Shown here: positions 3,228-27,588 of the stretch, one piece after another | Layout of the letters: the number at the start of each line of letters is the position of its first letter | Numbering within the stretch: position 1 is the stretch's first letter | DNA from: a virus | Lineage: Duplodnaviria > Caudoviricetes | Length of the DNA: 61,997 nt | Strand: one strand, 5' to 3' | Virus record (IMG/VR): IMGVR_UViG_3300035661_000067 | Location: 1 to 61,997 of that record | Notes under the pieces: model-generated | Told to the model about the DNA's origin: nothing | Seen by the model: the letters and a program-made list of their open reading frames with translations, nothing else | Databases searched by the model: none | Program-made: the position numbers and the translations under genes

Positions 3228-3234
3228 GGTTGCC

Positions 3235-9684: not shown

Positions 9685-12600
9685 TTAGTCCATGATCTGA
9701 GGCGAAAGCCCCGCACGAATTTCAGCATCTAGCCCGGGGATGAGTTCCGCCCCGCCCTGGTTGTTCGCGTGATGCTTCGCCCGCAGCTTCGCGGACGCCA
9801 CAATCCCCTCGCTCGTGATCGGGTAGGAGGGGTGCGCGGCGTTGAAGGCGTCCACCTTGGCCCGAATTTCCGGGGTAATGGCGGCATGGCTCAGGACCGC
9901 CGTGGCGAGTTCCTTCACGATGGCGCTCTTCTCGTCCTGGATCTCCTGCTGCTTGTTGTAGGCCAGGCTGTTCAGTTCGTTCTGCTCCGCGATTTCGGCC
10001 GGCGTGAAGCCCAGGGCCTGCACGATGACCTGCGGGGTGGTCACGGTATCGACCAGAGGATCGCCGTTCTTGGTCGTGGCGCCCTCCATCGCATAGCGGG
10101 CGGCCTTCATCACGTTCCGGGCGGCGACGGGAAGCATCTTCTCGATGCCGCGCTCGTAGTCTCCGTTGCTGATGTCCTGCGCGCCCATCAGCATGTTCTC
10201 GACAAGCGTCGGGGCTGCGCCGACCGACTGCGCGAGCCACTGCTGATACAGGGCCTCACCCTCTGCCGGGCGGCTGTCGTCCCTGAACCATAGGTCGGGC
10301 ATGCCGATGCGGCTGGACAGGCTCAGCCCGGTAACGGCCTGCGGGATGCCATAGAACACGGCGGCCCCCATCTTCTCGCCAAAGACCGAAACCACGTCGC
10401 TCTTGAAGTGATCCTTGACCTCAGATTGGGGTGCGCCGGTCAGAAGGCCCCAGATCATGCAGGCTGCGCCAAACATCCAGACGCCAGAGATACCGGCATG
10501 CAGCATCAACGAAGCGGAAATGCCAAAGAAGGTGCGGCGAGCCTCCTTCCGGGCCTCCGGGCTTTCGCCCCGCGTCATCTGGTGCAGATCCCGGGCCAGG
10601 CGCCACAGCATGTTAATCTGGAAATTTTTCATCGCAGTGACCACGCGCGCCACATTCCCTTGAGTGAGGCGCGGGCGGGCATCATTTTGGTAGTCGAAGT
10701 GCGTCTTCCAAGTCGCTGACATTGCAGCATTAACCGCTGCATCATGATTGCCGCGCACGGTCGGGCCGCCGTTTGCGCCGACCGCAGGGGCTGCGTTGAT
10801 CCGGGCCATACGGTAGGCGGCGAGGAAGGTGATTTCCCGATTCATCCGCTCGGTGTGGTGCAGCATTAAGGAGGCCGCAGCCATGATTTTGCTGCGCCAA
10901 TCCCGGAACTCAGTGCCGTGCGCTTCGATGCCGGCCAGGTCATGGGCGCGGCTCTTGTCGATCAGGCCGCTGGCATAGGCGAACTCCATCGCGGTCTTCT
11001 CGTCGTCTGTCAGGCGCGAAGAGTTGACGGCATGCCCCTTGCCCCGGGTGAAGTCGAGCGATGCCCGCGCGATTTGGGCTGAAGCCTGACGCATGTTCGC
11101 CCCCGGCATGGAGCCAAGGATCGGGATGCCGACAATCGTGGTCTGGCTGATATTCACGATGGCGGTCCCGGGCGAGAAGGCCATGAAGTAGAGGAACACC
11201 GCGCTCGTCGCCAACTGGCTCAGGGCCGAACCCTTGGGCGCCATGGTGCCCTGGTGGCGGCGCATCATTTCCTGCACGATCAGCCCGTTGCGGGTCGGCT
11301 CGCTGCTATTCTTGGCCTCGCGCTCGGCTTCGACAAGCGCATCCTGCAGGTCGAGGGCATAGGACAGCTTCGCAAGCTGGTGCGAACCATGGAAGGCGGC
11401 CTTGCCAAAGGCGCGGAAGGCATCCGACGAGAATCCCGCCGTAGCGTTCCGGTGCAGCCGGTTGCGGCGGATCGACAGTTCCGGCAGGGTTTCAAGCCAC
11501 CGCTGCCAGATCGCATCCATCACCACCTTGGGCGTGTCCACTCCGGCGAGGATCTGCTCGATGTCCGAGACGAAGGTCGGATCGACCATGCCGCGGATCT
11601 CGCTCTCGCCGATCACGCCGGTCTGCGGCTTGATGCCCGTCTCCGCCGCCGTCGCGTTGGCAAATTTGTCCCGCGCCCAGACGCTCTCGAACATATTGAA
11701 GGCCGTGACCTTGCCTTGGGCATTCCGAGTGGTGACGAAGAACTTGCCGAAGCGGGTCAGGGGGAAATAGGGCTTCTCTACCCGGTTGCTCTCGAACATC
11801 TTCCGCAGTGCAAAGGCGCGGGCGCGGGCGCCGTCGCCGTGGTTGCGGCGGGCCTTGTCCAGCCGGGCATTGGCCCGGTCCATGGCCTGGGCGCGCTCGC
11901 CGCCGATCAGGCCGTCATCCTGGATGCGGCGCATTTCATCGGCATGCGCCCGCTCGGCAGACCGAAGGCTGATGTTCATAGCCTTGGCGATGTTGGCGAT
12001 GATCGCCCGCTCGTAAGCCTGGGACATGGCGACATATTCATCGCGGACCTTGTTGAACATATGCTTGAAGGCCCCGGGAAGAGCCCGGTATTTCGGCACA
12101 AGGGCATCATACCGGGCTTTCGCCGCCCGGTCGGCCTGAACGCGCTCGGTCGCCGCCGCCATTTGGCCCGGGGTGCCGGTCTGGTTCTGAACCCGGGCAT
12201 AATCCTCCGGCGATGCCTTCGGCTCATAGGGCTGGCTTGGATCTTGCCCGGCGATGGTCGCCTCGTGCATCAGGTCCATCAGCTTGACGTTGGCGTTCTT
12301 GTTCTGGGACATGATGTAGCGCCAGCGCCGCGCCACCTCATCGGTGCGGGTCCACCACTCCGACCGCAGCTTGTCCATCTTGTCTTTCAGCTTTTGGTAG
12401 TTCTCAGCCGAAGGCATCTTCCGGCCCAACTCGGTGAAGAGCGCCCGGCCCGGTACTGCGGACAGGAGCGTGGAACTGCCCAGAGACATCGCCTGTGTGA
12501 GCAGTTTCGAGAGCATGGTGCGCTCGTATTCCTGCGTGATCGGCCGCCGCATCCGCATCGCCGATGCGACAGATTCCTCGCTGAGGAACCCATAGCCAAA

Positions 12601-15600
12601 GACCTGCTTCTCGCCCTTGACCGCGCGCTCCGCCAGAGAGCCATCGAACAGCTTCTCGAAGATCATGGCTTCATTGATATAGCCGCGGCCCCGCAGCACG
12701 TTGATGATGCCATGAATGATGTTCGTGAACTTGTGGTAGGCGCGGCTCAGCGGCCCGCCCGGGCTGTCCTTGCGGCCGGTAAAGGCCATGTAGCGGTCGG
12801 CGATGACCTCTTCGACCTGCCAGGCATAGGGCAGTCCGTCATATGCCTTCTTGACCCATGCCATGGTTGCCACGTCCATCCGGGCCGCAGATACCAGCGC
12901 CCGCCACTCTTCGGCGGTGAATGCCCCATACTGCGCGCCGTTCCAGATGGTCTGGTCGCGCGCCCAATGCAGCAACTCATGGCGCAGGACTGCCAGCGCC
13001 CCGTGCTTTTGGCCCCATGAGGTCCAGATTTTCCGCTCGGCCCCATAGAACATGCCGTAAATCTCATCACCGGCTTCGGTAATCCAGTGCGGTGCGACAT
13101 TCAGGCGAAGTGCGGCGGCCCCCACGCGCTTCAACTCGGCCAGAAGACGGGCGCGGAGATTGACCTCTTCGGCCTTGGTCATGGGCAACTCGCCCGGAAT
13201 CTCGGCCTCAATAAGCGGGTCGTTTTCTTTGAAGTCGATCCCGCGCTCGGAGAAGTGGTGCGCGCCCCCTTCGCCTTTGCGCGCCTTCGTGCCGGGAGGA
13301 ACGGCCCCGGTGATGGTCCGGGCCTCGTCCTTGTGGGCGCGCGATTCAAAGTTGACGCCGCCGATCGACTGGATCAGCCGCAGAAATTCCTCGAACTTGT
13401 CGGGGTAGATGATCTTCGCCTCGTAGGTCGGCCTCCCAGACCGGCTGTTGAAGTCGCCCACCAGGCTCGTGATCTGCTTGTTCGTCGCATAGGGGCGCCC
13501 GCCCTGCGTGTTCAGGATCACGCTGTAGCGGTTGTTCCGGGCGCCCCAAGAGGACATCGAGTGCGTGATCGTGATGACGGAATCGCTCGTCACCACCATG
13601 GTCTGGACTGGCTTTCCGTCCTTGCCATCCAGGTTCAGGAACGAGATCACCTGTGGGATGGTGCTGAACTGGACCGGCATGTCCCGAAGGGCGGCCTCGG
13701 TATCGAAAGACTTCGGCATGAGGATGCCATCGGACACGGTGCCATCCATGCGGGTGAAGCGCATGATCTGGCCCTTCTCGAAGGCTTTGAAGCCCGCGAC
13801 GAGGTTTCCAGTCAGGATAGTCCGATCCTCGCGCGAAACGGAGGATTGGTTTGCAAAGGCCGCGATGATCGCATGCGGGGAGACGGTCGAAGGCTCGGGC
13901 TGGTAGGCTACATCCTCGGTTTTCCCGGCGATGAGCCGCGACACCGGAACCTCAAACTCCCGCATCGAATCCGCGACGGCTAGCCGCAGGGTCATCTTAG
14001 ACTGTTGGAAGGCGTTACCCTCGGCCCGGCTCATGTCGATGCCCAGCGAGATCGCCGGGATGCGGGTCGTCTTTCCATTACCCTCGTCGCGGATCAGGAA
14101 CGCGCTGGCGCCAGGCTTCCAGGTCAGAGCAAGGCGTTCCTGGTCTTTGAGGATCGAGTGCGCCTCGGCGAGCCGGTCTTCCGCCTTCTTGATGCCAGCA
14201 TTGGCGTCCCGCTTCTGCGCGTCCGTCTTTGCCACCGCGAGGCGGCCTTGCCACATTGCCAGAGAAGCGTTCGCCGTGGCTGTGGCAGCAGGAAACCCGG
14301 CCCGAATGTCGGTCATCTGCTCCAGCGCCCACATCTCGGGCTTCTTCCCGTCGAGGATCTTGGCGATCCGATCCTTGAGTTCCGCCTCGGTGTAGGGCTT
14401 GGCGAGAACGTTCGCTTTGACAATTTCGCTCACGGCCTCGCGCTGGAAGGGCGAGGTGCCGACCGAAGGCGACAGGATGGTCTTCGAGAGGGTTTCAGCT
14501 TCAAGGTTCAGGGTCTTGGCCTCAAGCGTGTTTGTGCCGAGGCGGTCCATTTCCGCGATGATCGCGGTATAGGCGATGTCGAAGTCCTCATAGATTTTCC
14601 GGGCCACGGCATCAGCGACCACAGCGAGGCGACCAGTCAGCCGCGAGGCAAGGCCGGGCTCAGGCTTCTTCCCGTGCGCGAAACCAAGTTCCAGCCCCTG
14701 GTCCACATTCTCGGCGAGCCACTGGTTGACCACGATGTCGCCATAGCGGTTCAGGAAGTCCTTCACGTTCTTCATGGTGACGGCGGAGTCCTTGGCCGCC
14801 GTGGTGTTGGCATTGAGGGATGCCATCTTCCGCATCAGTTGCGCCACCACGCGCTGCTCGATGGCGAGGTCGGACGCCCCGATGGAATAGCGCGGAAGGT
14901 GGATCTGGCCCGTCCGGTGGATGCGGCCGAGCATCTGCATAAACACGTCGATGTTGGCGTCTGGCTGCAGCACCCTCATGTAGCGCGGCTTTCCGTCATT
15001 CCGGGGAGTCGCCGTGGCATGCAGGGAGAACCCAGTCGAGCCCGACGAGTTGATGATGAGCGCATCAAGGGCGCCAGAGTTGTAGCCCGCCATCGCCTTC
15101 GCCTTGAGGGCTTGGCTGTTGGGCATATTTTTCAGCTTGCCGTCATGGATCATCGAGCCGCGCCCGGTGATCTCGCCGACCTTCATGCCCGCCGCTTCCA
15201 GCCCGGCCTTGAGTTTGTCGATCGGGGATGCCGACATGCTGCCCGTGGCGGCGGCCCGGATGGTCCGCTCTGCGTCTTTCAGCGCCCGCAGCGCAGCCTG
15301 CCCGCCATGAGCGACAACCTCGGCGTCGGTGATGTAGTGGTAGGTCACAACCTCCGTCACCTTGTCCTTGAAGCCGATACGGCGCAGGCGCTGCAGGTAG
15401 CGGAGGATGATGTCGTTGAAGGTGATGTTGATCGCATCGCCCGCGCTCAGGCCCAGGTCTTCAGCATACTCGGAAATGATTGAGTCGTTGGTATTCGCCA
15501 GGGCAATGATCGGCTTCTCGCCGTTCTTCCACGCCTCGATCGCATCTTGGATCGCCGCATCAGACTTTGCCGCCAGAAGCACCTGACCCACGATGTTGTG

Positions 15601-18600
15601 GATCATCGAAGAGAAGGTCTTGGAGGTGGCGGACTGCGAGCCTACTGCGCCGCCCTGCCCAACCGCGCCGTGACCGCCCTTCTGGAGGTTCTTGATGTAG
15701 GCAGTCCGCACGTCCTGCATATGCTCTTCATCAGCCATGAAGACTGCCCGCACCGCGCCCAGCGCAGCATGCGTTTCGGCGCTGTTGGTCTTGAGCGTCC
15801 GGGAGTCGATCTTGACGCCGGCATAGGACCGCTCGCGGCGGATATACTGCCCGGCCTCCACCAGAAGGTTTGCGGAGATCTGCTGCAGTGGAACCCCGCC
15901 CTCGCTCAGAAGCCCGGCGAGGTCGCCCGGCACAAGGCTCATATCGGTCTTGAAGTAGAGCGACAGCACGTCAGGGTTCTTGGCAAAGGTCGCCGAGGAA
16001 TAGAGGGTGCCGTGCTTCGACGTCGCCAGCATTTCCCGGAGGATGCGCCCGCGGCTCTTCTTGGTGATGCCGGTTTCCTTGTTGGTCGTCTCGCCGTCGC
16101 CGCCCGCCTCGTGCGCCTCATCCATGATGAACATGGAGTTCTCGGCCAGCCCCATCACCGCCTCTTGGCGCAAGGTCGTGCCGTCACCACCCTCTTGAAG
16201 CTGGCTATAGGTGGTGAATAGGACGGTTTTGCCTTGCGGAAGGCCGAGGCCATCCCGCATATTCTGCATCGCCTTGGCGAGTGCGGGCTTCCCAAGGCTT
16301 TCGACCTTGGGGCTATTCGGGTCGTCCGGGTCCACCCGGAGGATGTTCTTGCCGGTCAGGTCGGTATTGGTGGCGAGGATTTCTGGGATGGAATCGCCCT
16401 CGCCGATGTCCGTCAGGTCGCGGATCATGTCGAGATAGAGCCCGGGGGTCTTGGTAACGAAGATCGGCGTGATGCCGTTCTTGCGCGCATAGCGGATCAT
16501 CCCGGCCACGACGCGGCCCTTCCCGACGCCAGTCTGGTCGCCGATGATGAAGCCCTTGCCGTCCTTCACATTGTCGATCGCCATCGCCAGGGCGTCTATT
16601 TGCTCCGCAGAGAAGCGGCCCTTGCCATCCGGCGCCCCGTTGCCGGTGAGTTCGGCCTCGGAATAGCCCAATTCTTTGGCAACAAAGGTGTCGATCTTGC
16701 CATATTTCTGCTCGATCCGGTCCAGCGCCCGGTTCATCGCATACTGCATATTGACCGGGATCAGCGTTCCGACCGCATAGGCGGCGCCGGAGCGCGGGGT
16801 ATATTGGACCTGGAAGTCCGTCTCCTGCTCGTTGTTCACGCGCTCAGAGGTGTCCCACACGATCTTGGCCGCACCGCTCGCCAGTTCCTGCGCCAGGCGC
16901 GTCAGCTGCCCCATCAGGCGCTGCAGCCCCTCGTTGCTCAGGCCAATGTCCTTGAGGGCCTGCACCAGAGCGCGCATGAGATCCTTGATGCTCGATGCCG
17001 CGTTGCCGAAATGCTTGAGCATCGCGAGGAATTGCGGCTTGGCCCGCTGATAGTCCTCCTCGTCAAACCCAAGGCCGGAGTTCAGCCGGGAGGGGTTGTT
17101 GAGCATGTTCACCAGCCCGGCAAGGCCATCGAGAAAGCCTGCGCCGGTTTCGGTGATGATGTTGCCCGCAGCGTCCCGGATCAGCGGCTTTTGCGCCGGA
17201 TCTTTCGGGGGCTCGTTCGGCTTGTCTTTCAGCTTGTCCTTGGGCGGCTTTTTGTCCTTGGGCTTGTTGGCCTTTTCTTCCTGCTCCGCAACCCAGGCCC
17301 CAGCTTCCTCCAGCAGGGTCGCATTGGAATTGGCGTGATAGCTGGAAGCATCGACCGAGGCGAACATGGCCCAAGGTATGCCTGCCGGGTAAACCCCCAG
17401 CCGAACGGACCCGGGCTGCACGAAAACGCCAGCCTCCACACCCTTCGGCAGCGCGGCGCGCAGAGCTGCCAGCGCGCCGCGCTGTGCCTCGATCAGCTTG
17501 AATCTCTCGTAGCGATTGGCCTTTGCGGCGAGGTCCTTGGGGTCTTGGTCGAGAAGATCCTGATTTCCGCCTAGAGCCTTGGCGGCTTTCTTGGCGCCCG
17601 CATCATCCTTGGAGGTGAACGGGTTGTCGTCCGGCGCAGCCAGGGCATCCGGGGGCGGCGGCTCGTTCGGAGGCGCACCAGCGCCACCGGCCTCCGGCTC
17701 GATGCCGAGGTCAGAGAAGATGTCGTTGAGAAGGTCTTGGGCGTCCTGATCGCTCAGGGCCCCAGAGCCAGGAGGAAGCTGTCCAGCGTCTCCGCCTGCA
17801 GGGCGTCCACCCGTTCCTGCGGATCTGCTTGTGCTGCCAGAGCCTCCGGCTTGATCGCTGCCGGAACCGTCCGGTTGCCCGACATTTCCCGGAGCCTGTC
17901 CAGGCTGTGCCACAGGGTTTCCCCCAGGCCCTGCAGTTCCGCCTCCTTGACCAGCGGAATCCCCAAATCCCGGAGCCGACTGATCGCCTCCTGCGGGTCG
18001 GCCTTCTCCACCAGCCGGTCGATTCGGCTTTCCAGCGCCGCCCTGTGCCGCGCCGGGGTCATCGGCGTTGTCGGGTTGACCAGCACTGTTCCCACTCCCG
18101 CCAAGCTGCCTGCGGGTGTCCAGGCTACGAGGTCCATTCAATCCTCCTTCAAGGTCGGTCCAACTCGTGATGATCGGCGGCGCCTCCGACATCGGAAGCA
18201 CCAGTTTCGATTCGCCGCGGCCCTCGATCACTATCACATCGACGGGCCATTGCGCGCCTTGCCGTGCATAGAGCGATCCAGCGACAGTAAAGTGCCCTAC
18301 AACGTTGTATTGGTCGTAAATCGTGTTCCAAAAGCGCCGCTGCCTGGCCTGGGAATAGGCTTGCGCCCGGTCGCTTCCGGTCAAGGTCGGGCTCTGGCCG
18401 CCGACGATCAGCACTGCGCGCCCATCCTTTTTCATGGACTGCAGCGCCCGCAGGGCGATGGCGTGGTCGATCTCCGTGGTCTGGCCGCCGCCCGCTAGCC
18501 CGGGGGCGTTGAATCGGGTTTCATTCCCCGCATCATCCATCACCTTGCCGAAGGGCGGGTTAGCGATGACGACATCCACAGAGGCCGGGCCCTGATGCTC

Positions 18601-21600
18601 CATCGCATCGCCGACGCTGATCTTGGTCATAAAGCTGCCCAGCGCATAGCTAGCGCGGGCCGCCCGGGCGGGGTCCAGTTCGTTCGCGGTCGTCTTTGCC
18701 GGGTCCGCGCCGATCAAGAGCATGCCGTTGCCCACGGTCGGCTCATAGACGGTTGTGTCCTCAGTGATGCCGGCCAGTTGCGAGGCCAGATAGGCCAGTG
18801 GCGCCGGGGTCGAATATGCCTGATTCCGCAGGCTCGTGGAGGTGCGTTGGGCCAGAAGCGGCTGGCGCGCATAGAGATCCACCAGCGCGGTATAGGTTTC
18901 GGCCGGGCTCTTGCCTTGGCTGATGATGTGGCGCGCAGTGATGACCACGGCGGCCTCAAGCGCCTCTTCCACCAGCTTGTATTCCTCGTCGGCGAGGGGC
19001 CGATCCAGAGCCTCTGCCGCCACCTTCCGGGCGACGAGGATGTTGTGGAAACCGTCACCATCGACGAGGCGCTTGGAGAAGGTGTCGATCAGCGTCTGGA
19101 CCATCTTCGGGACGGTCGGGTTGGCATCCGCAGGCTTGGGTGCAACTGCCTCCAGGAGGGCCTGCTCGGCCTCCATTTGCGCGATCTTCCACTTGATGTA
19201 GGGGTAGGTCACTTTCTTCGGGAAAGCAGCCGTCCGGGTGTTATAGCTGTTCCCCTTCGGCCCCTTGAACGTGACGATGGCCTTGTTGTTGCCGTCCGGG
19301 AGCAGCCGCCAGCCCTCGTCCAGCTTGTCGTGGATGAACTCCTGCGGGGTCTGCATCTTCCCATCGACACGGATGCCATAGAGCAGGGCGCCATCAAACT
19401 CATAAGACATCGGGCCATAGATCGCAGTGAAGGCGTCATAATCGGCCTTTAGGGCGGCCTTCTTGTCTTCGGCGGCCCGTGCTTCCTCCATGACCCGCTT
19501 GGTATCGGCCTCAAATTTGGCCTGATCCAGCGCAGCCTGGGGCGACATCAGATAGGCATCGGTTTCCCGCTTCCCATCGGCAATGTCGTCTTCCATGACC
19601 TCGGGCTTGCCGCCAGCGGTTGAGACGCCAACCATCATCGGCAGCATCGCGCCACGGTCCTCGATCGACACGATCTTCCGCTCGCCCTTGGGCGAGGCCC
19701 AGGTATCGCCGATCTTCATGCCGGTTAGGGTTTCGGTGCGCTTGGGCATGTCCGGCGCGGCCTTACCGTCCGGGTTCAGGAGTTTGCCGACCTCGCGCAT
19801 GACCTCGCGCGCCGCGGCGATGGTGCCGCTCTTCTGCAGTTCCTTGGCCGCGGGGTAGGCGCCGGACGCGGTGTCGATGTTGACGAGATAGTCATTCGAC
19901 ATCCCATAGGTCTGCAGGGCGAGCGTGAAGATCGCCTCGAAGGCCCGCGCCGTCTCTTCGATGGTCGTGCCCCAATAGGCGACCTTCCGATATGTATCGA
20001 AGGCGATATTGCGCTGGTGCCACGGTCCCTGTTTCAGGGTCAGGGCGAAGTGCTGCAGCGCCTTCGCCAGCCCATCGCCCAGGCCCTTGTTGTTGGTCTC
20101 GCCCCGGTCGGAGGCAAAGTCGGTGCGCTGCTTATCCTTGGGCTTGGCCGCCGCCGATACGCCGCCTTTGCTGGCCGCCTCGCGCGCCAGATAGTTGTCG
20201 AGAGCATGCACCCACTCATGGGCCAGCGAGCCCGAGCCGTTGCCCGCCGTGAGGTTGATGACGACCTCAAGCTGCTCATAGTGGGCCGCCGCCGCGCCCC
20301 TGCCACCCCGGCCCCGCGATGCGAAGCCGATTCCGAGGGTCTTGCCATCAACAGGAAGAACGGCAATCGCCTGCGAGGGGATGCCCAGCATGCCGGCCAG
20401 ATCCATGAAGGCATCATAGGCCCGGTTCAGGTCCAACTGCCGCTGGTCGTTGTTCCGGGATGCCCCAAACTCAACGCGCAGACCGAAGGCTTTCTCAAAG
20501 TCAGCGGTCGAGACATTACCCTCGCGGCGCTTCATGCCGCTGCGCTCGCGGTTCTCCAGCCGGTGTTCGCGCGGCCCGACACGGAGCGCCCGCACCTTGT
20601 TCCGAAGTTCCTCTTCGTTGGCGGTGATGTAGTCCCGGGCGGCCTGATAGGTTTCAAACCCGCCGACGATAATCGGGGAGTTCTCGTCGTTCGAAGACCA
20701 GATGCCATAGGTCTTTGTGGTGGAAATGCCCTTGGCGTCCCTCTCGAAGGTTTCAGACTTCACTGAGAGGCGGATCTCGCGCTCCTTTGGCACGGTCGTA
20801 TCGCCGCCTTCGCCTTCGGGCTTCATCGCCTCATCGAGCGCCTGTTGGTCAATGATCTTCCGCACCTCAGCGAGGGCACGGGCCTGCACCTCGGCCATCG
20901 TGTCGATGTAGAGCCCGCGCCCGTTGCTGTAGTGCGGCCCATTGGCGAGGAAATAGGTGTCCGGTTCGCGGGCGCGGACCTTGGTTTTCCCGTCATCGCT
21001 GGGAACGAGGACATAAGACTTCGTGATCGGGTCCATCTTATACTGGATCACCCGATTCAGCTGGTAGGTCGCAAGCAACTCCTGCTCTTGCGGGGTTGCG
21101 CCATCGCGGACCAGGCCAAAGCTGAGAAGGCCGGAGCCAGTGTTGTCCTCGTAGTCCTTGATATGATTGCGGATGTCGGCATCGAGATCGGGGCCATCCC
21201 AGACTTGCCGGGTGCCATCCAAAAGATCCTTCGCCAGCTTCCGCGCGGCGCTGACATGGTTGACCCACCGAGCCAGCTTGTATTTGTTCGTCCGGCCCTG
21301 CGGTTTTAGCGGGATCTGGCGACGGATCGAGAGGATCACCGCGATGGTGTCATGTATGGCCCCGCCTTGGGCCAGCGCCGCTGCATCAATCGGCGGGAAG
21401 GTCTTGCCCAGCGGGTTCGTGGCGATGTCGAGATCTGCCCCGATCGCCCGGACGAACTGCCCGAAGAGGTGCTTGCGAGCGCCCTCGATCTTGCCGCCGA
21501 AGTCATCAATCTTCTCCGGGGGCTCTTCGGGCTTCGGGTTCGCGTCTTGCGGCGCATCAACCGCGGGTGGGTCGATGATTACGGGCGGTTTTTCAGGCTC

Positions 21601-24600
21601 GCCGCCTTCTGGCGCAACTGCCGGACCTCCGCTGGGTTTTTCTCGGTTTCCGCCATCGCCCGAAGTGTTTCCGCCATCGCCTTGCGGTGCAGAGGGGCCG
21701 CCTGTGGGCTTGTCGAAGAGCCCGCCTTGTCCTTTTGTGCCATCTTGGGCTCCTTTTGCCATTTTCAGCACATCGCGCGGGTTCGCGGTATGCCCGAACA
21801 TATCGGCCTCGGCCTGGGTCTTGCCCATTTCCTGAACGTAGAAGGCCAGCGCCGATCCGATGCGCTCGCGGCTGGCAGGCTTGGTCCATTTCACGACATC
21901 GTTGAAGAGCAGGGATAGGAAGTCCTTGGCCTCATCCGACACGGTGCCGCCCGCGGCGAACATATCGGTCTGGTTAACGAAATCCGTGATGGGCCGGCCA
22001 GCGCGCCGCGCCCGGTCCACAAGCTGCACGGCCTCCATCAGGGCCGGGGTCATATCGGCATGGGGCGAGATCACCCCTTCCGCTGCCTGCGCCCGCATCT
22101 TGGCCCACTCGCCCGCAACATCGGTCAGCGCGCCGCCGATGGCCTTGATGTTGGTGTCCGATGCCTCCATCAGCGTCTTGATGAGGTCCGGGCTTCCATA
22201 GGCTTTTGCCAGCAGGGCCGCTTGGATGCGGAGAAGGCCAGCCTGGCTGATCGAGCCATCCGAGCCGATCATCCCGATCGCATCGTTCTCGCCGATCACG
22301 TCCTTGATGATCTGCCGCACGAAGTCCCGGTTGCCCGCGGAATCGAGATCGCCGCCACGATAGAGGGCGAGGTGCGCGGCCTGGATCTGCCCGGCATCCG
22401 CCATCGCGGTTTCCGAGACGGTCATGCCAAGGTTCGTGCGCTCGTTGTATTCCTTGGTCGCCGCGATGCGGGTCGCCGTGTCCATTTCCGTTGTGCGGAG
22501 GCGGATCAGCACCGGGTTCTTCATCGACTTGTGGACCGGATAGCCCTTGGCCTTGAGCCATGCGCGATAGGCTTCGGCGCTCTTGCCGTTCTCGACATAG
22601 GCGCGGCGTAGGGCCATCATGCGCCCGTTGCCGCTTTCGACCACGCCATCCTTGGAAACGATCGGGGCGCCGGGGCCAGCTTCGGGGCCTTCGCCCATGA
22701 ACTCTGGGTTCAGGTTCGTTGCCATGCGCTGCACCTGGAGCATGGCAGAGGGGTGCGATCGGTCGCGCGGCTGTAGTTCGGACGGATAGGCTTTGTTGAC
22801 CCGGCCATCATCGTCGTTCGAGATCACCAGATCATCGAGCGACACCACGCCATAATCGACCTTGACCACGCGCCCCTGCGGCGTCGTCACCTTGTCGTGG
22901 CTGTGAAGGTTGAAGTGCTGGATGCCCGGCTTCTTGGCCGCATCGCCCTCGGTGTAGTTGCTGGAAATCGGCTTCTTCCATGCCGGGGTGTGCGGCAGCA
23001 GGGCGCGCAACTCCGCAACTTCCATGGTCTTGATACCGCCGACACGGGCCTCGCCCTTGCCATCGCTGAACCCGGCCTCATAGACCTTGAGTGCTTCGCT
23101 GGCGCTGTCGAACCCCATCAGGATCTTGTGTTCATCGAACTTGCCGGTCGCCAGATCGTTCTGATCGACAACGACAACCAGCTTCGATTCGGGGTTGGGG
23201 CCGACATAGACATCGACGTGGTCTTTGTCTTTGCCAACGGTGCCCTTGATGTAGCCATAGTCGGCAGCGAGCGTGACGCTCCATTCCTTGCCGTCCGGCG
23301 AGGTGCCCTTCCGGGTGCCGGCCTTCTCGGTTTCGATGCTGATGTCCAGCCCGTGAACCTTGATATGCTTCATCTGGTAGTTGCCCGCCTCGGCCTGTGC
23401 CGGGGTCGGGTTTGGGTTCGCGTGATTGTCGTCGGCGGCAGGCTTCTCGCCCATGCGCTCGCGCGCCTGGGGGTCGTTTGCCATGAAGAAGGCATAGCTG
23501 AACCCAAAAGGCGTGGTGGAGCGCGCCTCTTTGCCCAGAGGATCGGTGCCGCGCAGCTTGGACTGCATCTTGGACCCTTCAACCGGGTCCACATTGGCGG
23601 TCGGCAGATCCGTCTGGAACATGCCGTAAAGCTGGGTGCGCTTGGTGTAGGGGTCGCCGAAGTTGTGCGGGTGGAAGCGCACGGTCGGGGCAGGCATGCC
23701 CGCCTTTTCCTCGATGCGGCCGACAGGGTTTTCAAGGACATGGAAGCCGGTCGGGTTCGATTCCTCGATGATCCGGCGTGTCTCGTTCACCAGCATGATG
23801 TTGTATTCCAGAGGCGACTTCGCCCCGGATGCCAGCGCAGCCTCGCCGAAGACCTTCACCAGGGCCTCGGGGGTCTGGATGTCGTGCAGCGGCTCCCACC
23901 AGCGCGCGCCCGCGCCGGAGAAGGTGGTGCAGGGTGTGGCCGCCAGAACACCATAGACCTCGTAGCCTTCGGCCCGGCGCTCCGCAATTTGGTCGTTGAT
24001 CCACTGATCGAGCCCGATCTTCGAGCCGATCTTGATGTCGTGCTGGATCACCTGATACCCAGCGTCCCGCCACGGCTGCGACCACTGGCCGCTGTAGTCG
24101 AACAGGCTGATGATGATCTTGCCGGCGTTCTTGCCGGTCTTCCCGATGTCCTTGGCGACCTGCTTCCATGCCGCCAGTTTGGCGTCGGCCTCGGCCTGCG
24201 GGATATAGCCATCCTTGGCCGCCTTGGCCTCGATGCTGACCGTTCCCTTGCGTTCCGGGAACACGTCCTTGGGGTCCATGTGCGGCACATCGGCCTCGGC
24301 CATGGGCTCGCCTTTGGGCGCACCGTTCACCGTGTCGGTGTTGACGCCGTTCGACTCGAAGTTCTGGAGGAAGTCCATGGCATCGGCGACCGCAGAGCCA
24401 TCGCTGTCAAACTCGCCCGTGCCCTCGTCAAACTTGGGCTCCGGCAGATCCCCGGTCTTCGCCGCGCGGGCCTCTTCGATCAGGCGCTTGGCGATGTCTT
24501 CGGCTTCCCGGATCAGGGTCGCCTCTTGGTTCCACTCCTTGGTGGTCTTGTGCTGTCCCTGGGCATCGAAGTTGTCGATCGCGTGGCCCTTGGAGCGCAT

Positions 24601-27588
24601 CTGCGCCTCGGCGCGGCGCGTGGCGGCATCCAACTCGCCCACCAGGTGGCCGAGGGTGCTGTCATTGCGGTATTTGGCGAGCGTCTTGCGCTCTTGGTCC
24701 GTGAGGGCATGCTCCAGCCGGTAGGGCTTGTCGGCCTCGGCGGGTGGGACGGGCGCTTTCGGCGGGGCCTTCGGGCCGCCTTCGCCCACCGGGGGCGCGG
24801 CGGGAGGCGGCGGCGTGTTGGTCTGGGGCTTCTTCGGGGCTTCCGCAGCGGGGGGCGGGGTTTCGGGCTCCAGATAGGGCTCGACCTGCTTGAGAAGGTT
24901 CGCGGCGGCTTTGCGAACCCGGTCGCCAGCGATGGAATCGGCGGGATGGATGGTCAGGTTGCGACGAAGGCCCTCGGCGGCCGACTTGACCGCCTCTTCC
25001 GGGGTGGAGAAATACTGCCGGTGCGCGCTTCCGCCAGAGCCTCCGCTGTGGCCGGGCAGATCCCAATTCAGGTTTGAGGTCCAGCCCTTGCCTTCATGGT
25101 GGATGGGCGTGAGGGTGACGTGCGCCTTGCCTGCCTTGTCTGCAGTAAACTTGATCGGGGCCACGTTCTCCGGCGTCGGCGCGGCGATGGTCGCCGGGTC
25201 GGGGCGCTTGGCGCTCTGCTGATCTGGGGGCAGCTTGTCATGGGCATCCATCACCAGCTTTGCCAGAGCCTCGGGCGGCATGGTGGTCAACTGCTCATGC
25301 GTGACCGAGATATGGGTTTTCCCGCGGCCCGCCGTGGCAATGATCGCGCCGATTTGGTCCGTGGAATCGCGCCCGCCCGAAACCTGCCAGTCCTCGGGGA
25401 GGTGCTTCGCCAGGTTGCGAATCCCAACGGCATGGGGCTTGGTGTCGTCGGGCTTGATGTAGTGGTCGGCGCCAAAACCGGGCTTTACTGCCGGTGCTGC
25501 AGGCTCGCCTCCGGGACCGGCGTCAGGAGCAGGCTGGCCTGCAGGATTGCCCTGGTCACTCTGCGGCGCGGCAGGTCCGCCAGTGTCGGGTTGACCCGTG
25601 CTGCCTTGATCCACCGAAGCACCGCCTTGCGGCGCTTGCGGCTTAGGTGCCCCATCGCCTCCAACAGGAGCAGGGCCTGCTTCATTTCCCGGATCTTGTG
25701 TTTCATCAGGAGCCTTCGCGGGTTTCGGGGGGGACTCGGTCTGAGGCTTGACGTTGGTGAAGTCCGGCTTTGGCCGAGAGGTCGAGCCAGAGCCCGGCTT
25801 CGGGGGCAGGGGTTGGACCATGAAGCCGCCATCGACAGCGATGATCTGGAAGGCATCGCCAGTCAGGCCATTGGCCTTAGCGCCCTTAGCCGCCTGCTTG
25901 GCAGTCTCGAAGGGTATGCCGCCCTTCTTGCCGAACGGGGGCGGGGGCTCGGGGGCCTTGGTTTCGCCCGGGGCGGAGCCCGGAACGTGGAATGTCATGG
26001 TCTGCATGTCGGCATGCGAGATGATGCTGTCCTTGCCATCATCGAACCGGAATTGCGGGCCGTGGGGCGTGTTCTTCACGAACTGGACGTTGACGTTCGT
26101 GCCATCAGGCATACGCGCGGTGAATCGCTCGCCGGTCTTGGCGTCATCCCCCGTTTCGGGGTGCTTGAAGTTCATGTCGGGCGCAGCACCAGCCGCGCCG
26201 CCCATGGGGCCAGATCCAGCGCCGGGGCCTGCGGACGGGCCTGCGGACGGGCCTGCGCCAGGCGCAGCGCCGGGGCCGCCAGAAGGTTGCGCGCCGGGGG
26301 TAGAGGGGCTACCACCCGGCAGCGCGCCCCCAGGTGCAGCGGGGGGAGGTGCCGTGCCGGGGGGAGGGGTTTGGGGTTGCGCTTCGCCCTTGCGGGTCAG
26401 GGCGCTCACGCCAGCACCAAGGCCGGAAATGCCAACCGTGGCAAGCATGGTCTGGACGATGGTATCCCGGATTGCCGCAGGCTGTTCCGCGAGGAAGTCC
26501 TTCATGGGCTTGTCGGGGTTCAGCGAAGCATAGGCATTCATGTTCTGGAACAGGGTCGTGGCGACCTCTGTCGGCACTTCCGTCATAAGCTGGTGCATCA
26601 GGATCTTGCCAAAGCCAGACCCTTCCACGATGTCGCCAAGCAGCTTGTGGACCGGGATTTTCTCGAACAGGCCCTCAGCCAGTGCATCTACGCCGCCATA
26701 GAGCAGCGATGCCGCATCAGACTTGCCCGCCTTCTCGGCCTCGCCGACAGATTGGCCGCCTTGTTGGATCATCCCGGGGGCAAGAAAGGTCGCAGCGACG
26801 GCCGGCGTGGCCGCGCCGCCAGACAGGATCGAGGCAAGGATGCCGGGTGCCATGGTCCCGATCGACTGCGCCGCACCCTGAACTTGCTCGCCGATCCATG
26901 TGTCGGGCTTGCCAGCGACCCACTCCTTGGTCCTGCCGGCACCTGCGGCCTGCTTCTGCAGCCATGTCTTGGCGTCGTCCAGCCCTGCAAGGCCGGCCAT
27001 CGCACCCATGATATTCCACGAGGCTTCGCTGAACGCAGGGGCTGCCGATGCGATGCCGCGCGGGACCGTCCCCAACGCATCCATCGCATCGCCCACAAAG
27101 CCCTTCGGGGGCGGGGGCGGGCGACCGCCTGGGTTCAGTTCATCGGCCAGTTGGTAAGCGCGCGACATGATCTGCGAGGTCAGCGATGGATCTGCGTTCG
27201 GGCCGAGAACCTTGGCAATGGCCTCTTCGGGTTTCATCCCGCCCTTGAGAAGCGGAGAAAGGACCGATGCAGCATGCGTAGCTGCCTGCAGGGCTTCATC
27301 CTTGTTCGATGCCCCGCCGACCTCGCCGATGGACATCAGGAGGTTGATCGGAACGCCGCTCTGGCTGCTGAGTGCGCCCATAGCGTTCAGGTGGGGGTCG
27401 TTCTGGGGCATGCCTGTCGCTGCAGCACCGCCCAGCGATGAAGGGCCGGTCGGCTGCGGCTGTTGCGCGCTCGGAGTGGTCTGGGGGGCTTGGGGGGGGG
27501 CAACACCGTTGCGGGCGTCGATCTTGGCCTGCTCTTCGGCAAGCGCCGCATCCACCGGATTGCGGCTCGTGTAATCAGTCCCAGCCAC
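9685..27588 (-). CDS. Giant DarB-like polyvalent virion protein (5967 aa)
   Basis: Motifs N to C: hydrophobic helices; C5-MTase (SLFDYSG, TPC, ENP; ~24120-23480); InPase (PTPAQAEAGNY, DYGYI..T.GKDKDHVDV); ddrB-ParB (YP.ELQPRDR, GAPIV...ESGNGR); LPD5 (IDDFGGKIEGARK); LPD1 zincin (AHEWVHALD); N6-MTase (QAYSTP, EPTVGNG, NPPF); strawberry-notch SF2 helicase (DQTGVGKGR, DEAH, QMLGRIHRTGQ); HELLH peptidase; PLxRFG. Confidence 0.9.
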   Translation of the reverse strand: MAGTDYTSRNPVDAALAEEQAKIDARNGVAPPQAPQTTPSAQQPQPTGPSSLGGAAATGMPQNDPHLNAMGALSSQSGVPINLLMSIGEVGGASNKDEALQAATHAASVLSPLLKGGMKPEEAIAKVLGPNADPSLTSQIMSRAYQLADELNPGGRPPPPPKGFVGDAMDALGTVPRGIASAAPAFSEASWNIMGAMAGLAGLDDAKTWLQKQAAGAGRTKEWVAGKPDTWIGEQVQGAAQSIGTMAPGILASILSGGAATPAVAATFLAPGMIQQGGQSVGEAEKAGKSDAASLLYGGVDALAEGLFEKIPVHKLLGDIVEGSGFGKILMHQLMTEVPTEVATTLFQNMNAYASLNPDKPMKDFLAEQPAAIRDTIVQTMLATVGISGLGAGVSALTRKGEAQPQTPPPGTAPPPAAPGGALPGGSPSTPGAQPSGGPGAAPGAGPSAGPSAGPGAGSGPMGGAAGAAPDMNFKHPETGDDAKTGERFTARMPDGTNVNVQFVKNTPHGPQFRFDDGKDSIISHADMQTMTFHVPGSAPGETKAPEPPPPFGKKGGIPFETAKQAAKGAKANGLTGDAFQIIAVDGGFMVQPLPPKPGSGSTSRPKPDFTNVKPQTESPPKPAKAPDETQDPGNEAGPAPVGGDGAPKPQAPQGGASVDQGSTGQPDTGGPAAPQSDQGNPAGQPAPDAGPGGEPAAPAVKPGFGADHYIKPDDTKPHAVGIRNLAKHLPEDWQVSGGRDSTDQIGAIIATAGRGKTHISVTHEQLTTMPPEALAKLVMDAHDKLPPDQQSAKRPDPATIAAPTPENVAPIKFTADKAGKAHVTLTPIHHEGKGWTSNLNWDLPGHSGGSGGSAHRQYFSTPEEAVKSAAEGLRRNLTIHPADSIAGDRVRKAAANLLKQVEPYLEPETPPPAAEAPKKPQTNTPPPPAAPPVGEGGPKAPPKAPVPPAEADKPYRLEHALTDQERKTLAKYRNDSTLGHLVGELDAATRRAEAQMRSKGHAIDNFDAQGQHKTTKEWNQEATLIREAEDIAKRLIEEARAAKTGDLPEPKFDEGTGEFDSDGSAVADAMDFLQNFESNGVNTDTVNGAPKGEPMAEADVPHMDPKDVFPERKGTVSIEAKAAKDGYIPQAEADAKLAAWKQVAKDIGKTGKNAGKIIISLFDYSGQWSQPWRDAGYQVIQHDIKIGSKIGLDQWINDQIAERRAEGYEVYGVLAATPCTTFSGAGARWWEPLHDIQTPEALVKVFGEAALASGAKSPLEYNIMLVNETRRIIEESNPTGFHVLENPVGRIEEKAGMPAPTVRFHPHNFGDPYTKRTQLYGMFQTDLPTANVDPVEGSKMQSKLRGTDPLGKEARSTTPFGFSYAFFMANDPQARERMGEKPAADDNHANPNPTPAQAEAGNYQMKHIKVHGLDISIETEKAGTRKGTSPDGKEWSVTLAADYGYIKGTVGKDKDHVDVYVGPNPESKLVVVVDQNDLATGKFDEHKILMGFDSASEALKVYEAGFSDGKGEARVGGIKTMEVAELRALLPHTPAWKKPISSNYTEGDAAKKPGIQHFNLHSHDKVTTPQGRVVKVDYGVVSLDDLVISNDDDGRVNKAYPSELQPRDRSHPSAMLQVQRMATNLNPEFMGEGPEAGPGAPIVSKDGVVESGNGRMMALRRAYVENGKSAEAYRAWLKAKGYPVHKSMKNPVLIRLRTTEMDTATRIAATKEYNERTNLGMTVSETAMADAGQIQAAHLALYRGGDLDSAGNRDFVRQIIKDVIGENDAIGMIGSDGSISQAGLLRIQAALLAKAYGSPDLIKTLMEASDTNIKAIGGALTDVAGEWAKMRAQAAEGVISPHADMTPALMEAVQLVDRARRAGRPITDFVNQTDMFAAGGTVSDEAKDFLSLLFNDVVKWTKPASRERIGSALAFYVQEMGKTQAEADMFGHTANPRDVLKMAKGAQDGTKGQGGLFDKPTGGPSAPQGDGGNTSGDGGNREKPSGGPAVAPEGGEPEKPPVIIDPPAVDAPQDANPKPEEPPEKIDDFGGKIEGARKHLFGQFVRAIGADLDIATNPLGKTFPPIDAAALAQGGAIHDTIAVILSIRRQIPLKPQGRTNKYKLARWVNHVSAARKLAKDLLDGTRQVWDGPDLDADIRNHIKDYEDNTGSGLLSFGLVRDGATPQEQELLATYQLNRVIQYKMDPITKSYVLVPSDDGKTKVRAREPDTYFLANGPHYSNGRGLYIDTMAEVQARALAEVRKIIDQQALDEAMKPEGEGGDTTVPKEREIRLSVKSETFERDAKGISTTKTYGIWSSNDENSPIIVGGFETYQAARDYITANEEELRNKVRALRVGPREHRLENRERSGMKRREGNVSTADFEKAFGLRVEFGASRNNDQRQLDLNRAYDAFMDLAGMLGIPSQAIAVLPVDGKTLGIGFASRGRGGRGAAAAHYEQLEVVINLTAGNGSGSLAHEWVHALDNYLAREAASKGGVSAAAKPKDKQRTDFASDRGETNNKGLGDGLAKALQHFALTLKQGPWHQRNIAFDTYRKVAYWGTTIEETARAFEAIFTLALQTYGMSNDYLVNIDTASGAYPAAKELQKSGTIAAAREVMREVGKLLNPDGKAAPDMPKRTETLTGMKIGDTWASPKGERKIVSIEDRGAMLPMMVGVSTAGGKPEVMEDDIADGKRETDAYLMSPQAALDQAKFEADTKRVMEEARAAEDKKAALKADYDAFTAIYGPMSYEFDGALLYGIRVDGKMQTPQEFIHDKLDEGWRLLPDGNNKAIVTFKGPKGNSYNTRTAAFPKKVTYPYIKWKIAQMEAEQALLEAVAPKPADANPTVPKMVQTLIDTFSKRLVDGDGFHNILVARKVAAEALDRPLADEEYKLVEEALEAAVVITARHIISQGKSPAETYTALVDLYARQPLLAQRTSTSLRNQAYSTPAPLAYLASQLAGITEDTTVYEPTVGNGMLLIGADPAKTTANELDPARAARASYALGSFMTKISVGDAMEHQGPASVDVVIANPPFGKVMDDAGNETRFNAPGLAGGGQTTEIDHAIALRALQSMKKDGRAVLIVGGQSPTLTGSDRAQAYSQARQRRFWNTIYDQYNVVGHFTVAGSLYARQGAQWPVDVIVIEGRGESKLVLPMSEAPPIITSWTDLEGGLNGPRSLDTRRQLGGSGNSAGQPDNADDPGAAQGGAGKPNRPAGGEGRPAGGDQSAPGFGDSAGQGGGTAGPGGNPVAQPGQAPGNVGQPDGSGSDQAGGSGSTSRSAGTGGRPAGGDAGQLPPGSGALSDQDAQDLLNDIFSDLGIEPEAGGAGAPPNEPPPPDALAAPDDNPFTSKDDAGAKKAAKALGGNQDLLDQDPKDLAAKANRYERFKLIEAQRGALAALRAALPKGVEAGVFVQPGSVRLGVYPAGIPWAMFASVDASSYHANSNATLLEEAGAWVAEQEEKANKPKDKKPPKDKLKDKPNEPPKDPAQKPLIRDAAGNIITETGAGFLDGLAGLVNMLNNPSRLNSGLGFDEEDYQRAKPQFLAMLKHFGNAASSIKDLMRALVQALKDIGLSNEGLQRLMGQLTRLAQELASGAAKIVWDTSERVNNEQETDFQVQYTPRSGAAYAVGTLIPVNMQYAMNRALDRIEQKYGKIDTFVAKELGYSEAELTGNGAPDGKGRFSAEQIDALAMAIDNVKDGKGFIIGDQTGVGKGRVVAGMIRYARKNGITPIFVTKTPGLYLDMIRDLTDIGEGDSIPEILATNTDLTGKNILRVDPDDPNSPKVESLGKPALAKAMQNMRDGLGLPQGKTVLFTTYSQLQEGGDGTTLRQEAVMGLAENSMFIMDEAHEAGGDGETTNKETGITKKSRGRILREMLATSKHGTLYSSATFAKNPDVLSLYFKTDMSLVPGDLAGLLSEGGVPLQQISANLLVEAGQYIRRERSYAGVKIDSRTLKTNSAETHAALGAVRAVFMADEEHMQDVRTAYIKNLQKGGHGAVGQGGAVGSQSATSKTFSSMIHNIVGQVLLAAKSDAAIQDAIEAWKNGEKPIIALANTNDSIISEYAEDLGLSAGDAINITFNDIILRYLQRLRRIGFKDKVTEVVTYHYITDAEVVAHGGQAALRALKDAERTIRAAATGSMSASPIDKLKAGLEAAGMKVGEITGRGSMIHDGKLKNMPNSQALKAKAMAGYNSGALDALIINSSGSTGFSLHATATPRNDGKPRYMRVLQPDANIDVFMQMLGRIHRTGQIHLPRYSIGASDLAIEQRVVAQLMRKMASLNANTTAAKDSAVTMKNVKDFLNRYGDIVVNQWLAENVDQGLELGFAHGKKPEPGLASRLTGRLAVVADAVARKIYEDFDIAYTAIIAEMDRLGTNTLEAKTLNLEAETLSKTILSPSVGTSPFQREAVSEIVKANVLAKPYTEAELKDRIAKILDGKKPEMWALEQMTDIRAGFPAATATANASLAMWQGRLAVAKTDAQKRDANAGIKKAEDRLAEAHSILKDQERLALTWKPGASAFLIRDEGNGKTTRIPAISLGIDMSRAEGNAFQQSKMTLRLAVADSMREFEVPVSRLIAGKTEDVAYQPEPSTVSPHAIIAAFANQSSVSREDRTILTGNLVAGFKAFEKGQIMRFTRMDGTVSDGILMPKSFDTEAALRDMPVQFSTIPQVISFLNLDGKDGKPVQTMVVTSDSVITITHSMSSWGARNNRYSVILNTQGGRPYATNKQITSLVGDFNSRSGRPTYEAKIIYPDKFEEFLRLIQSIGGVNFESRAHKDEARTITGAVPPGTKARKGEGGAHHFSERGIDFKENDPLIEAEIPGELPMTKAEEVNLRARLLAELKRVGAAALRLNVAPHWITEAGDEIYGMFYGAERKIWTSWGQKHGALAVLRHELLHWARDQTIWNGAQYGAFTAEEWRALVSAARMDVATMAWVKKAYDGLPYAWQVEEVIADRYMAFTGRKDSPGGPLSRAYHKFTNIIHGIINVLRGRGYINEAMIFEKLFDGSLAERAVKGEKQVFGYGFLSEESVASAMRMRRPITQEYERTMLSKLLTQAMSLGSSTLLSAVPGRALFTELGRKMPSAENYQKLKDKMDKLRSEWWTRTDEVARRWRYIMSQNKNANVKLMDLMHEATIAGQDPSQPYEPKASPEDYARVQNQTGTPGQMAAATERVQADRAAKARYDALVPKYRALPGAFKHMFNKVRDEYVAMSQAYERAIIANIAKAMNISLRSAERAHADEMRRIQDDGLIGGERAQAMDRANARLDKARRNHGDGARARAFALRKMFESNRVEKPYFPLTRFGKFFVTTRNAQGKVTAFNMFESVWARDKFANATAAETGIKPQTGVIGESEIRGMVDPTFVSDIEQILAGVDTPKVVMDAIWQRWLETLPELSIRRNRLHRNATAGFSSDAFRAFGKAAFHGSHQLAKLSYALDLQDALVEAEREAKNSSEPTRNGLIVQEMMRRHQGTMAPKGSALSQLATSAVFLYFMAFSPGTAIVNISQTTIVGIPILGSMPGANMRQASAQIARASLDFTRGKGHAVNSSRLTDDEKTAMEFAYASGLIDKSRAHDLAGIEAHGTEFRDWRSKIMAAASLMLHHTERMNREITFLAAYRMARINAAPAVGANGGPTVRGNHDAAVNAAMSATWKTHFDYQNDARPRLTQGNVARVVTAMKNFQINMLWRLARDLHQMTRGESPEARKEARRTFFGISASLMLHAGISGVWMFGAACMIWGLLTGAPQSEVKDHFKSDVVSVFGEKMGAAVFYGIPQAVTGLSLSSRIGMPDLWFRDDSRPAEGEALYQQWLAQSVGAAPTLVENMLMGAQDISNGDYERGIEKMLPVAARNVMKAARYAMEGATTKNGDPLVDTVTTPQVIVQALGFTPAEIAEQNELNSLAYNKQQEIQDEKSAIVKELATAVLSHAAITPEIRAKVDAFNAAHPSYPITSEGIVASAKLRAKHHANNQGGAELIPGLDAEIRAGLSPQIMD
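17754..18137 (-). CDS. Nested +1-frame gene inside the giant gene (127 aa, helical)
   Basis: AAGGAGG-5nt-ATG; GC3-rich codons in this frame; protein-like amphipathic sequence. Confidence 0.75.
   Translation of the reverse strand: MDLVAWTPAGSLAGVGTVLVNPTTPMTPARHRAALESRIDRLVEKADPQEAISRLRDLGIPLVKEAELQGLGETLWHSLDRLREMSGNRTVPAAIKPEALAAQADPQERVDALQAETLDSFLLALGP
21579..21743 (-). CDS. Nested +1-frame gene inside the giant gene (54 aa)
   Basis: AAAAGGAG-6nt-ATG; MAQKDKAGSSTSPQAAPLHRKAMAETLRAMAETEKNPAEVRQLRQKAASLKNRP; absent from the ORF track, translated by hand. Confidence 0.65.
   Translation of the reverse strand: MAQKDKAGSSTSPQAAPLHRKAMAETLRAMAETEKNPAEVRQLRQKAASLKNRP
25485..25706 (-). CDS. Nested +1-frame gene inside the giant gene (73 aa, basic)
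   Basis: MKHKIREMKQALLLLEAMGHLSRKRRKAVLRWIK...; codons AAG/ATC/CTG/GAG/GCG typical of real genes here; weak GAAGG SD. Confidence 0.6.
   Translation of the reverse strand: MKHKIREMKQALLLLEAMGHLSRKRRKAVLRWIKAARVNPTLADLPRRRVTRAILQASLLLTPVPEASLQHRQ

Follow-up and report, generated by a model that had tools for sequence, protein, structure and literature searches.

A probable gene nested in a linker of a giant phage polyvalent-protein gene and inherited with the DdrB-ParB module

The virus record IMGVR_UViG_3300035661_000067 (here called the window; a complete record of 61,997 bp with a G+C content of about 63%) carries on its minus strand a giant gene for a multidomain "polyvalent protein". A short open reading frame (ORF) of 54 codons lies inside this gene, in the +1 frame relative to the giant ORF (the host ORF), and overlaps a glycine- and proline-rich linker that follows the DdrB-ParB module of the giant protein. 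Comparison with related loci makes it very probable that this ORF is a real, conserved gene that has been overprinted on the giant gene. Its predicted product is a small, basic protein folded as a helical hairpin. The features that define the nested ORF and its surroundings are as follows.

21579–21743, minus strand: nested coding sequence, consisting of an ATG, 54 codons in all, and a TAA, in the +1 frame of the host ORF
21757–21750, minus strand: Shine-Dalgarno (SD)-like sequence AAAAGGAG, 6 nt (the spacer cccaag) before the nested ATG
21765–21767, minus strand: stop codon that shuts the +1 (nested) frame on the upstream side, at a distance of 7 codons from the ATG
21579–21744, minus strand: host reading of the nested bases, corresponding to host amino acids (aa) 1949–2003, a G/P-rich linker with a G+C content at third codon positions (GC3) of 0.51–0.52
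21646–21660 and 21667–21681, minus strand: exact 15-nt duplicate with its copies 21 nt apart, read by eye without a repeat tool
21745–22896, minus strand: conserved DdrB-ParB module, host aa 1565–1948, the span aligned by relatives
9685–27588, minus strand: host gene, a 5967-codon ORF encoding the polyvalent protein, represented in database records by 5898 aa from an ATG at 27381

The original prediction, made from the letters of the window, had described an SD sequence, the spacer, the ATG and a 54-aa ORF ending in TAA at 21579–21743. The peptide, which runs MAQKDKAG...SLKNRP, matches it letter for letter. The 15-nt duplicate repeats seven codons in both frames, so that the nested frame reads AMAETLR and AMAETEK, with GDGGN occurring twice in the host translation. 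The ORF had been placed directly after the ddrB-ParB domain, and this is true of the conserved module, which stops one codon before the nested ATG; the Pfam core of the domain ends at aa 1698. The match to LPD5 begins about 290 aa beyond the nested stretch, at host aa 2291.

Loci related to the window were fetched with an alignment (A2) that covers the last 169 residues of the ParB module. Of the 71 loci obtained, genomes supplied 10, viral contigs 32 and metagenome contigs 29. The ParB module of the window is 42–51% identical to those of its 17 nearest relatives. The +1 peptides at the equivalent site resemble one another and the peptide of the window, and share a pattern that consists of a Met-Ala-x-Lys start, a stretch rich in Lys, Ser and Pro, an amphipathic helix of the ELLARTLEHQA type, a turn made by E, D or N followed by Pro, and a basic helix. 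A profile made from the +1 peptides of four loci was compared with 6068 six-frame fragments from the 71 loci and the window piece. It matched 14 loci at E < 1e-3, all of them in the +1 frame and where the ParB module ends, and its best match elsewhere had E = 0.77. The second-round profile, built from these 14 loci with the window excluded, matched the nested ORF of the window at E = 8.5e-5. After five rounds, 28 of the 72 sequences were included, and a homologous +1 ORF was thereby placed at the same site in 27 of the 71 related loci. The original prediction had proposed, as a check, to see whether other phages conserve the SD sequence and the ATG after their ddrB-ParB domains, and the related loci bear it out. 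The ORFs of the family are 46–67 aa long, with one of 84 aa. No +1 ORF is present in loci that lack the linker, where structured helical sequence follows directly on the ParB module, and the host-frame linker is hypervariable in both length and sequence among homologues.

Other loci have similar-looking but divergent +1 ORFs at the same site (L003, L004, L017, L007/L008/L010, L034, L041, L065/L070 and L066). Those of L007, L008 and L010, of L065 and L070, of L066, of L034 and of L041 are 55–82 aa long and have SD-like motifs. These groups are conserved internally, for example as LAGMFDRL...PDGSPGDK.LA.KLR, and fall below the profile threshold. They may be divergent members of the family or analogous nested genes.

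Searched against 1.84 billion representative proteins, a profile gave 40 matches at E ≤ 1e-3, the best at 1.8e-14. Thirty of them are proteins of 45–76 aa that begin at the same Met, which means that other pipelines have already called this small protein; the other 10 are longer. Among 401 sampled genomes of the class to which the genome of L004 belongs, four have a match (L073, L074, L075 and L076). In L074 and L075, the ORF lies after a ParB module and is nested in a frame that exceeds 1000 aa. L076, a phasin-like protein matched at E = 1.7e-5, was set aside as a probable false match. In L073 (G166:C170:1-3137), the ORF of the ParB module is shortened, and its end is overlapped by a 212-aa ORF of which the hairpin forms the N terminus. 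Likewise, in P0160, a protein of 274 aa, the hairpin is fused in frame to a segment that, in the host frame of giant proteins such as P0007, comes after the ParB linker. L073 and P0160 could be split forms or frameshifted copies.

The start signals are retained across the family. Among 21 distinct sequences, the alignment opens with the codon ATG in 16, GTG in four and TTG in one. These starts overlie six different host residues (Tyr in 10 sequences, Asn in four, Asp, Gly and Arg in two each, and Leu in one), and the host codon at this point ends in T in 21 of 21 (TAT, AAT, GAT, GGT, CGT or CTT), set against a T3 frequency of 14% in the module. A GGAG, GAGG or AGGA is found at −16 to −4 in 14 of the 21 (background 0.119); when AAGG is also counted, 18 have an SD-like motif (background 0.174). 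The other genes of the window carry similar motifs (AGGAG, GAGG and AAGGAGG) at a distance of 4–8 nt.

These signals bear on the possibility that the hairpin is reached by a programmed +1 frameshift after ParB, which would yield a truncated InPase-ParB protein with the hairpin as its C-terminal tail and with the SD-like motif as a stimulator. In prfB, an internal SD-like motif stimulates frameshifting. The motif just upstream of the nested ORF would fit such a role, as would the position of the hairpin, which always comes directly after the ParB module. However, frameshift products of the prfB, dnaX or tail-chaperone (G/GT) type depend on a conserved slippery site and do not need a start codon of their own, and a start codon is present at the first aligned column in all 21 sequences. 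The +1 frame is also stopped shortly before the ORF, 7 codons upstream in the window and 3–11 codons upstream in L049, L054, L058, L053, L028, L060, L014, L051 and L048, so that only a very short stretch is left for a shift site, and no shared slippery motif was noticed in this stretch, as read without a formal scan. Nor would frameshifting account for the 30 database proteins that begin at this Met. It is considered very unlikely.

Further evidence for the nested gene comes from the pattern of change between relatives. As a control, the same nucleotides were compared between clades in all three frames, with z-scores calculated against composition-preserving shuffles. The nested frame had a mean z of 3.80, with 52% of values above 3; the host frame averaged 1.09 (9% above 3) and the +2 frame 0.83 (6%). 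Among the 20 pairs with the window as one member, the corresponding averages were 2.91, 1.21 and 1.80. Similarity that depends on residue order is confined to the nested frame. In six disjoint locus pairs, the differences at nested positions 1, 2 and 3 numbered 61, 53 and 92 (χ2 P = 0.002), which makes the third position of the host codons the least variable, and an alignment of the same stretch in the host frame agrees with this (91, 63 and 61). Upstream, in the 169 codons of the ParB module, the host positions differ 162, 127 and 365 times. The ratio of nonsynonymous to synonymous change (dN/dS, by the method of Nei and Gojobori) is 0.11–0.49 in the nested frame in all six pairs, while the host frame on the same bases gives 0.63–1.89 and is undefined in one of the six pairs; the upstream ParB module gives 0.09–0.40. 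Between L051 and L052, 16 of 507 upstream sites differ and none does in the ORF. The host frame is open across the nested ORF in 21 of 21 loci, and both frames are thus kept. What had been proposed from the letters has in this way gained a start codon present throughout the set of 21 sequences, an SD-like core in 14 to 18 of them, and selection on the nested frame.

Seen from the letters of the window by themselves, a chance ORF was the more natural explanation. By this account, a G/P-rich linker free of hydrophobic residues simply stays open in the +1 frame and happens to contain an ATG and an SD sequence that are not used for translation. All 167 stops in the +1 frame of the giant gene derive from host Leu, Val, Met or Ile codons, so that a linker without these residues cannot be closed in that frame, and 96.7% of 3000 synonymous recodings leave the nested frame open. 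The giant gene contains 23 ORFs of at least 54 aa that start with ATG in the +1 frame, compared with 18.9 ± 2.7 in synonymous and 17.6 ± 2.9 in codon-order shuffles. Two of them have AGGAG or GGAGG 4–12 nt upstream, where 0.5 ± 0.6 are expected (P = 0.07 to 0.10). Moreover, the bases of the SD sequence are supplied by Lys-Gly-Ala in the host protein and the ATG by Asp-Gly (GAT GGC). On these grounds, a chance ORF was first rated as highly likely, and this rating was dropped on comparison with relatives. Chance does not explain a similarity that is specific to the nested frame or a profile match obtained without the window. It also fails to explain why most differences fall at nested position 3 and the fewest at host position 3, why dN/dS is low in the nested frame and about 1 in the host frame, and why a start codon is retained across six host residues, always in rare T-ending codons. 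These comparisons strongly disfavour a chance ORF, which is now regarded as improbable.

Another explanation would be that the act of translation matters, or a signal in the RNA or DNA (for ribosome traffic, mRNA stability or recombination at the module boundary), and that the peptide itself has no function. The pair L012 and L063 would fit this, since 117 of 495 upstream sites (24%) differ and only 7 of 162 sites (4%) in the ORF, as if the ORF had been exchanged as a unit at the module borders. The depletion of AGGAG in the giant gene, which makes an internal SD sequence exceptional, would also fit. On the other hand, six of the seven differences between L012 and L063 are at nested position 3, where synonymous change is concentrated in the family as well, and conservation is found at the amino-acid level, in the amphipathic helix, the E/D-P turn and the basic helix. 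Such conservation would not be expected of a nucleic-acid signal, and neither would the confident fold obtained from the family alignment. A peptide without function is about as doubtful as a frameshift. As to the pair itself, the host frame of L063 is only 229 + 114 codons long, and the contrast between L012 and L063 suggests mosaic exchange at the boundary or a broken copy. Taken together, the three rival explanations retain a small share of the probability.

Codon usage gives a further view of the stretch. A score was trained on 12 other genes of the window and applied to segments of 55 codons. The nested stretch has a score of 0.204 in the +1 frame and of 0.006 in the host frame; the gene-wide means are −0.369 and 0.316, respectively. 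Only 0.46% of 55-codon segments attain a +1 score of 0.204, and none of 3000 recodings that keep the host amino acids does so. The host GC3 of the stretch, 0.51–0.52 compared with 0.79 over the whole gene, is far below the expected 0.81 ± 0.05, and none of the 3000 recodings falls as low. In the +1 frame, G+C contents of 0.64, 0.52 and 0.76 at positions 1, 2 and 3 resemble those of an ordinary gene of the same phage. Two further linkers of the giant gene show a like shift in codon usage (segments starting at aa 613–660 and 3140–3257).

Several observations weigh against a real nested gene in this phage. ORF length, openness and the combination of SD sequence and ATG are each non-significant when taken alone. 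Low host GC3 is found in the linkers of 22 of 25 relatives, a few of which have no recognizable nested ORF, and part of the codon signal could therefore be a general property of such linkers; since most of the low-GC3 relatives do carry a nested ORF, linker GC3 does not provide an independent control. The binomial P values for the start signals are too small, since the starts were chosen by alignment and the loci are phylogenetically non-independent. The peptide of the window is divergent (17–35% identical to other members), and its profile score before inclusion was modest, at 20.9 bits. The match to L076 shows that a helical profile rich in Ala, Arg and Glu can yield false hits. Single-protein scans of genome and viral contigs found no close relative of the window. 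The stretch is present in four metagenome DNA runs, the contigs of which have no variant in 21579–21743, and database cluster members are 100% identical over the nested ORF; with neither close relatives nor variants, selection was measured in relatives rather than in the lineage of the window. There was no RNA run among the runs that hold the window sequence. Among GenBank phages, only the LPD5 part of the giant protein was matched, at 27% identity, and a tblastn search of these phages with two family peptides gave no match, so that no cultured carrier has been identified.

The structure of the small protein was predicted with AlphaFold2 from a family alignment of 21 rows. The mean predicted local distance difference test (pLDDT) score is 79 and exceeds 90 over residues 21–50, with helices at residues 15–33 and 37–51. 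The N-terminal tail of about 14 residues is rich in Lys and Ser and predicted to be disordered. The model thus describes a basic helical hairpin, in keeping with the helix-turn-helix hairpin foreseen in the original prediction. Searches of Pfam and PHROGs with all 21 members gave nothing significant, and Foldseek found no match in the PDB at E ≤ 0.001, only generic helical hairpins. Pfam DUF6381 (PF19908), a family of about 55–62 aa with unknown function, is similar in size to the nested peptide and was considered as a candidate family. However, the window matches it below the cut-off (15.3 bits, E = 0.017, under the gathering threshold of 26.6), and only one of the 21 members matches it at all. 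The nearest ESM Atlas clusters are also named DUF6381, with a score of 0.78; scores below 0.9 are taken only as a lead. No paper mentioning DUF6381 was found. Complex prediction for the ParB module and the hairpin gave a score of 0.00; its controls were not run, and the result was used neither for nor against binding.

The domains of the host protein are distributed as follows.

Host aa 1397–1529: InPase (Pfam)
22495–22878, minus strand: Pfam core of ddrB-ParB, host aa 1571–1698
Host aa 2291–2367: LPD5 (Pfam)
Host aa 2531–2586: LPD1 (Pfam)
Elsewhere in the host protein: an N6-methylase-like region, a Strawberry-notch-type helicase and LPD39

This set of Pfam domains identifies the host as a phage polyvalent protein as defined by Iyer et al. 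(2017, PMC5512222), who predict that the DdrB-ParB module is a DNase regulated by NTPs and delivered together with the virion. In 10 relatives, the domain downstream of the nested gene is a Zeta-toxin-like kinase in three, a ResIII helicase in three, LPD5 in one and ART-PolyVal in one (just under the cut-off), and there is none in two. Since the downstream domains vary, the nested gene goes with the ParB module and not with LPD5. The comparison of loci shows the putative gene to be co-inherited with the DdrB-ParB module whatever domain follows.

Other observations concern the giant gene as a whole. AGGAG is rarer in it than expected (13 occurrences, compared with 24.4 ± 3.7 and 27.9 ± 4.9 in the shuffles), and ATG, counted in any frame, is commoner (379, compared with 309–315). 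At position 14975, a change of C to A is the sole difference in the giant gene that recurs in contigs from three of the four runs, and it matches the one residue at which database copies of the giant protein vary.

The nested ORF had been said to lie in the same frame as two other nested ORFs of the giant gene, and both of these are indeed in the +1 frame.

17754–18137, minus strand: second +1 ORF, 127 aa, in the G/P-rich linker after the methylase-like region, with the strong SD sequence GAAGGAGG 5 nt before its ATG
25485–25856, minus strand: third +1 ORF, 123 aa, in the first G/P-rich linker, where host GC3 is 0.58 compared with 0.80 expected

The 127-aa ORF has a codon score of 0.133 in the +1 frame compared with −0.165 in the host frame, and the host GC3 is 0.49. 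Its peptide is helical and protein-like in appearance, and a fold predicted from the single sequence has a mean pLDDT of 55. A word-based search gave no called homologues and viral contigs contained no relatives. This ORF may be a second nested gene. For the 123-aa ORF, a scan found no SD sequence; its second half, from Met51, is helical in appearance, and a word-based search again gave no called homologues. Neither ORF is similar to the long forms of the hairpin protein, P0140–P0161. In L048, a second +1 open stretch (L048:3921-4067) is found downstream of the hairpin ORF, at a distance of about 750 nt, over another linker rich in G. P0140 (z = 12.5) and P0155 (z = 10.3), both of which begin with the hairpin, resemble this stretch in their C-terminal parts, indicating that the two +1 modules form one protein in other genomes.

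All three linkers of the giant gene shift their codon usage toward the +1 frame. Together with the second +1 module of L048, this raises the idea that linkers of polyvalent genes are systematically dual-coding, each domain module having its own +1 partner that acts in trans, as a regulator, a chaperone or a packaging adaptor. This gene would then hold three of them, at 25856–25485, 21743–21579 and 18137–17754, and its apparent G/P-rich spacers would be the shadow of hidden helical proteins. Such a general arrangement is tentative, and rather less likely than a single nested gene after the ParB module.

How the nested gene would work can be outlined. Ribosomes would initiate internally on the mRNA of the giant gene, at AAAGGAG-N6-ATG, and read 54 codons in the +1 frame, releasing a small basic protein with a disordered tail and a two-helix hairpin; we infer that it is translated in this phage. 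The host reading of the same bases would be a flexible G/P-rich linker required only to stay open, and selection would thus act mainly on the small protein. The linkage to the DdrB-ParB module hints at a partner of that module, again a regulator, chaperone or packaging adaptor, a suggestion that is more doubtful than it is probable. The product might act in trans with DdrB-ParB, restraining or chaperoning the predicted NTP-regulated DNase in the producing cell. Alternatively, it might be an adaptor that loads the giant protein into the capsid.

The role of DdrB-ParB in polyvalent proteins is itself only predicted, and the small protein would provide an experimental handle on the module. Changing the nested ATG to ACG keeps the host Asp (GAT to GAC), so that the nested gene can be knocked out while the giant protein is left untouched. 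More generally, a segment taken for a disordered linker can code in two frames and be under less constraint in the linker frame, which changes how linkers and low-complexity regions in giant phage proteins are to be interpreted. Should the other two linkers prove to be alike, a wealth of overprinted genes that have so far gone unseen would be expected in polyvalent genes.

No paper on genes nested in polyvalent-protein genes was found; the text of PMC5512222, which the search included, does not speak of overlapping genes, frameshifts, linkers or alternative reading. What emerges here is an overprinted gene family in the linker of a giant multidomain gene, co-inherited with one domain and with no curated family to represent it. 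Since gene callers forbid nested genes, the family is missing from annotation in spite of its conservation in many phages and prophages.

Overprinting as such has well-known precedents in phages. The small Rz1 gene of phage lambda lies wholly inside Rz on the same strand and is read in the +1 frame from start signals of its own; both proteins are made. In size, strand, frame and the possession of separate start signals, the nested ORF resembles it, as far as can be read from the sequence. Rz1, however, is a lipoprotein with a signal peptide and a lipobox Cys that partners the product of its host gene in lysis, and o-spanins of the Rz1 type are embedded in an i-spanin gene beside the lysis genes. 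The nested peptide has no Cys, signal sequence or hydrophobic N terminus, and its host is a polyvalent gene of the virion type. Lacking a Cys and a signal peptide, the nested product is not a spanin. In phiX174, a tiny genome under size pressure, gene E is overprinted on D and gene B on A, each out of frame. There, as here, the overlap pairs a constrained frame with a tolerant one. The present case differs in that the genome is 62 kb long, the overlap is confined to an interdomain linker and the arrangement has been kept across many divergent phages and prophages.

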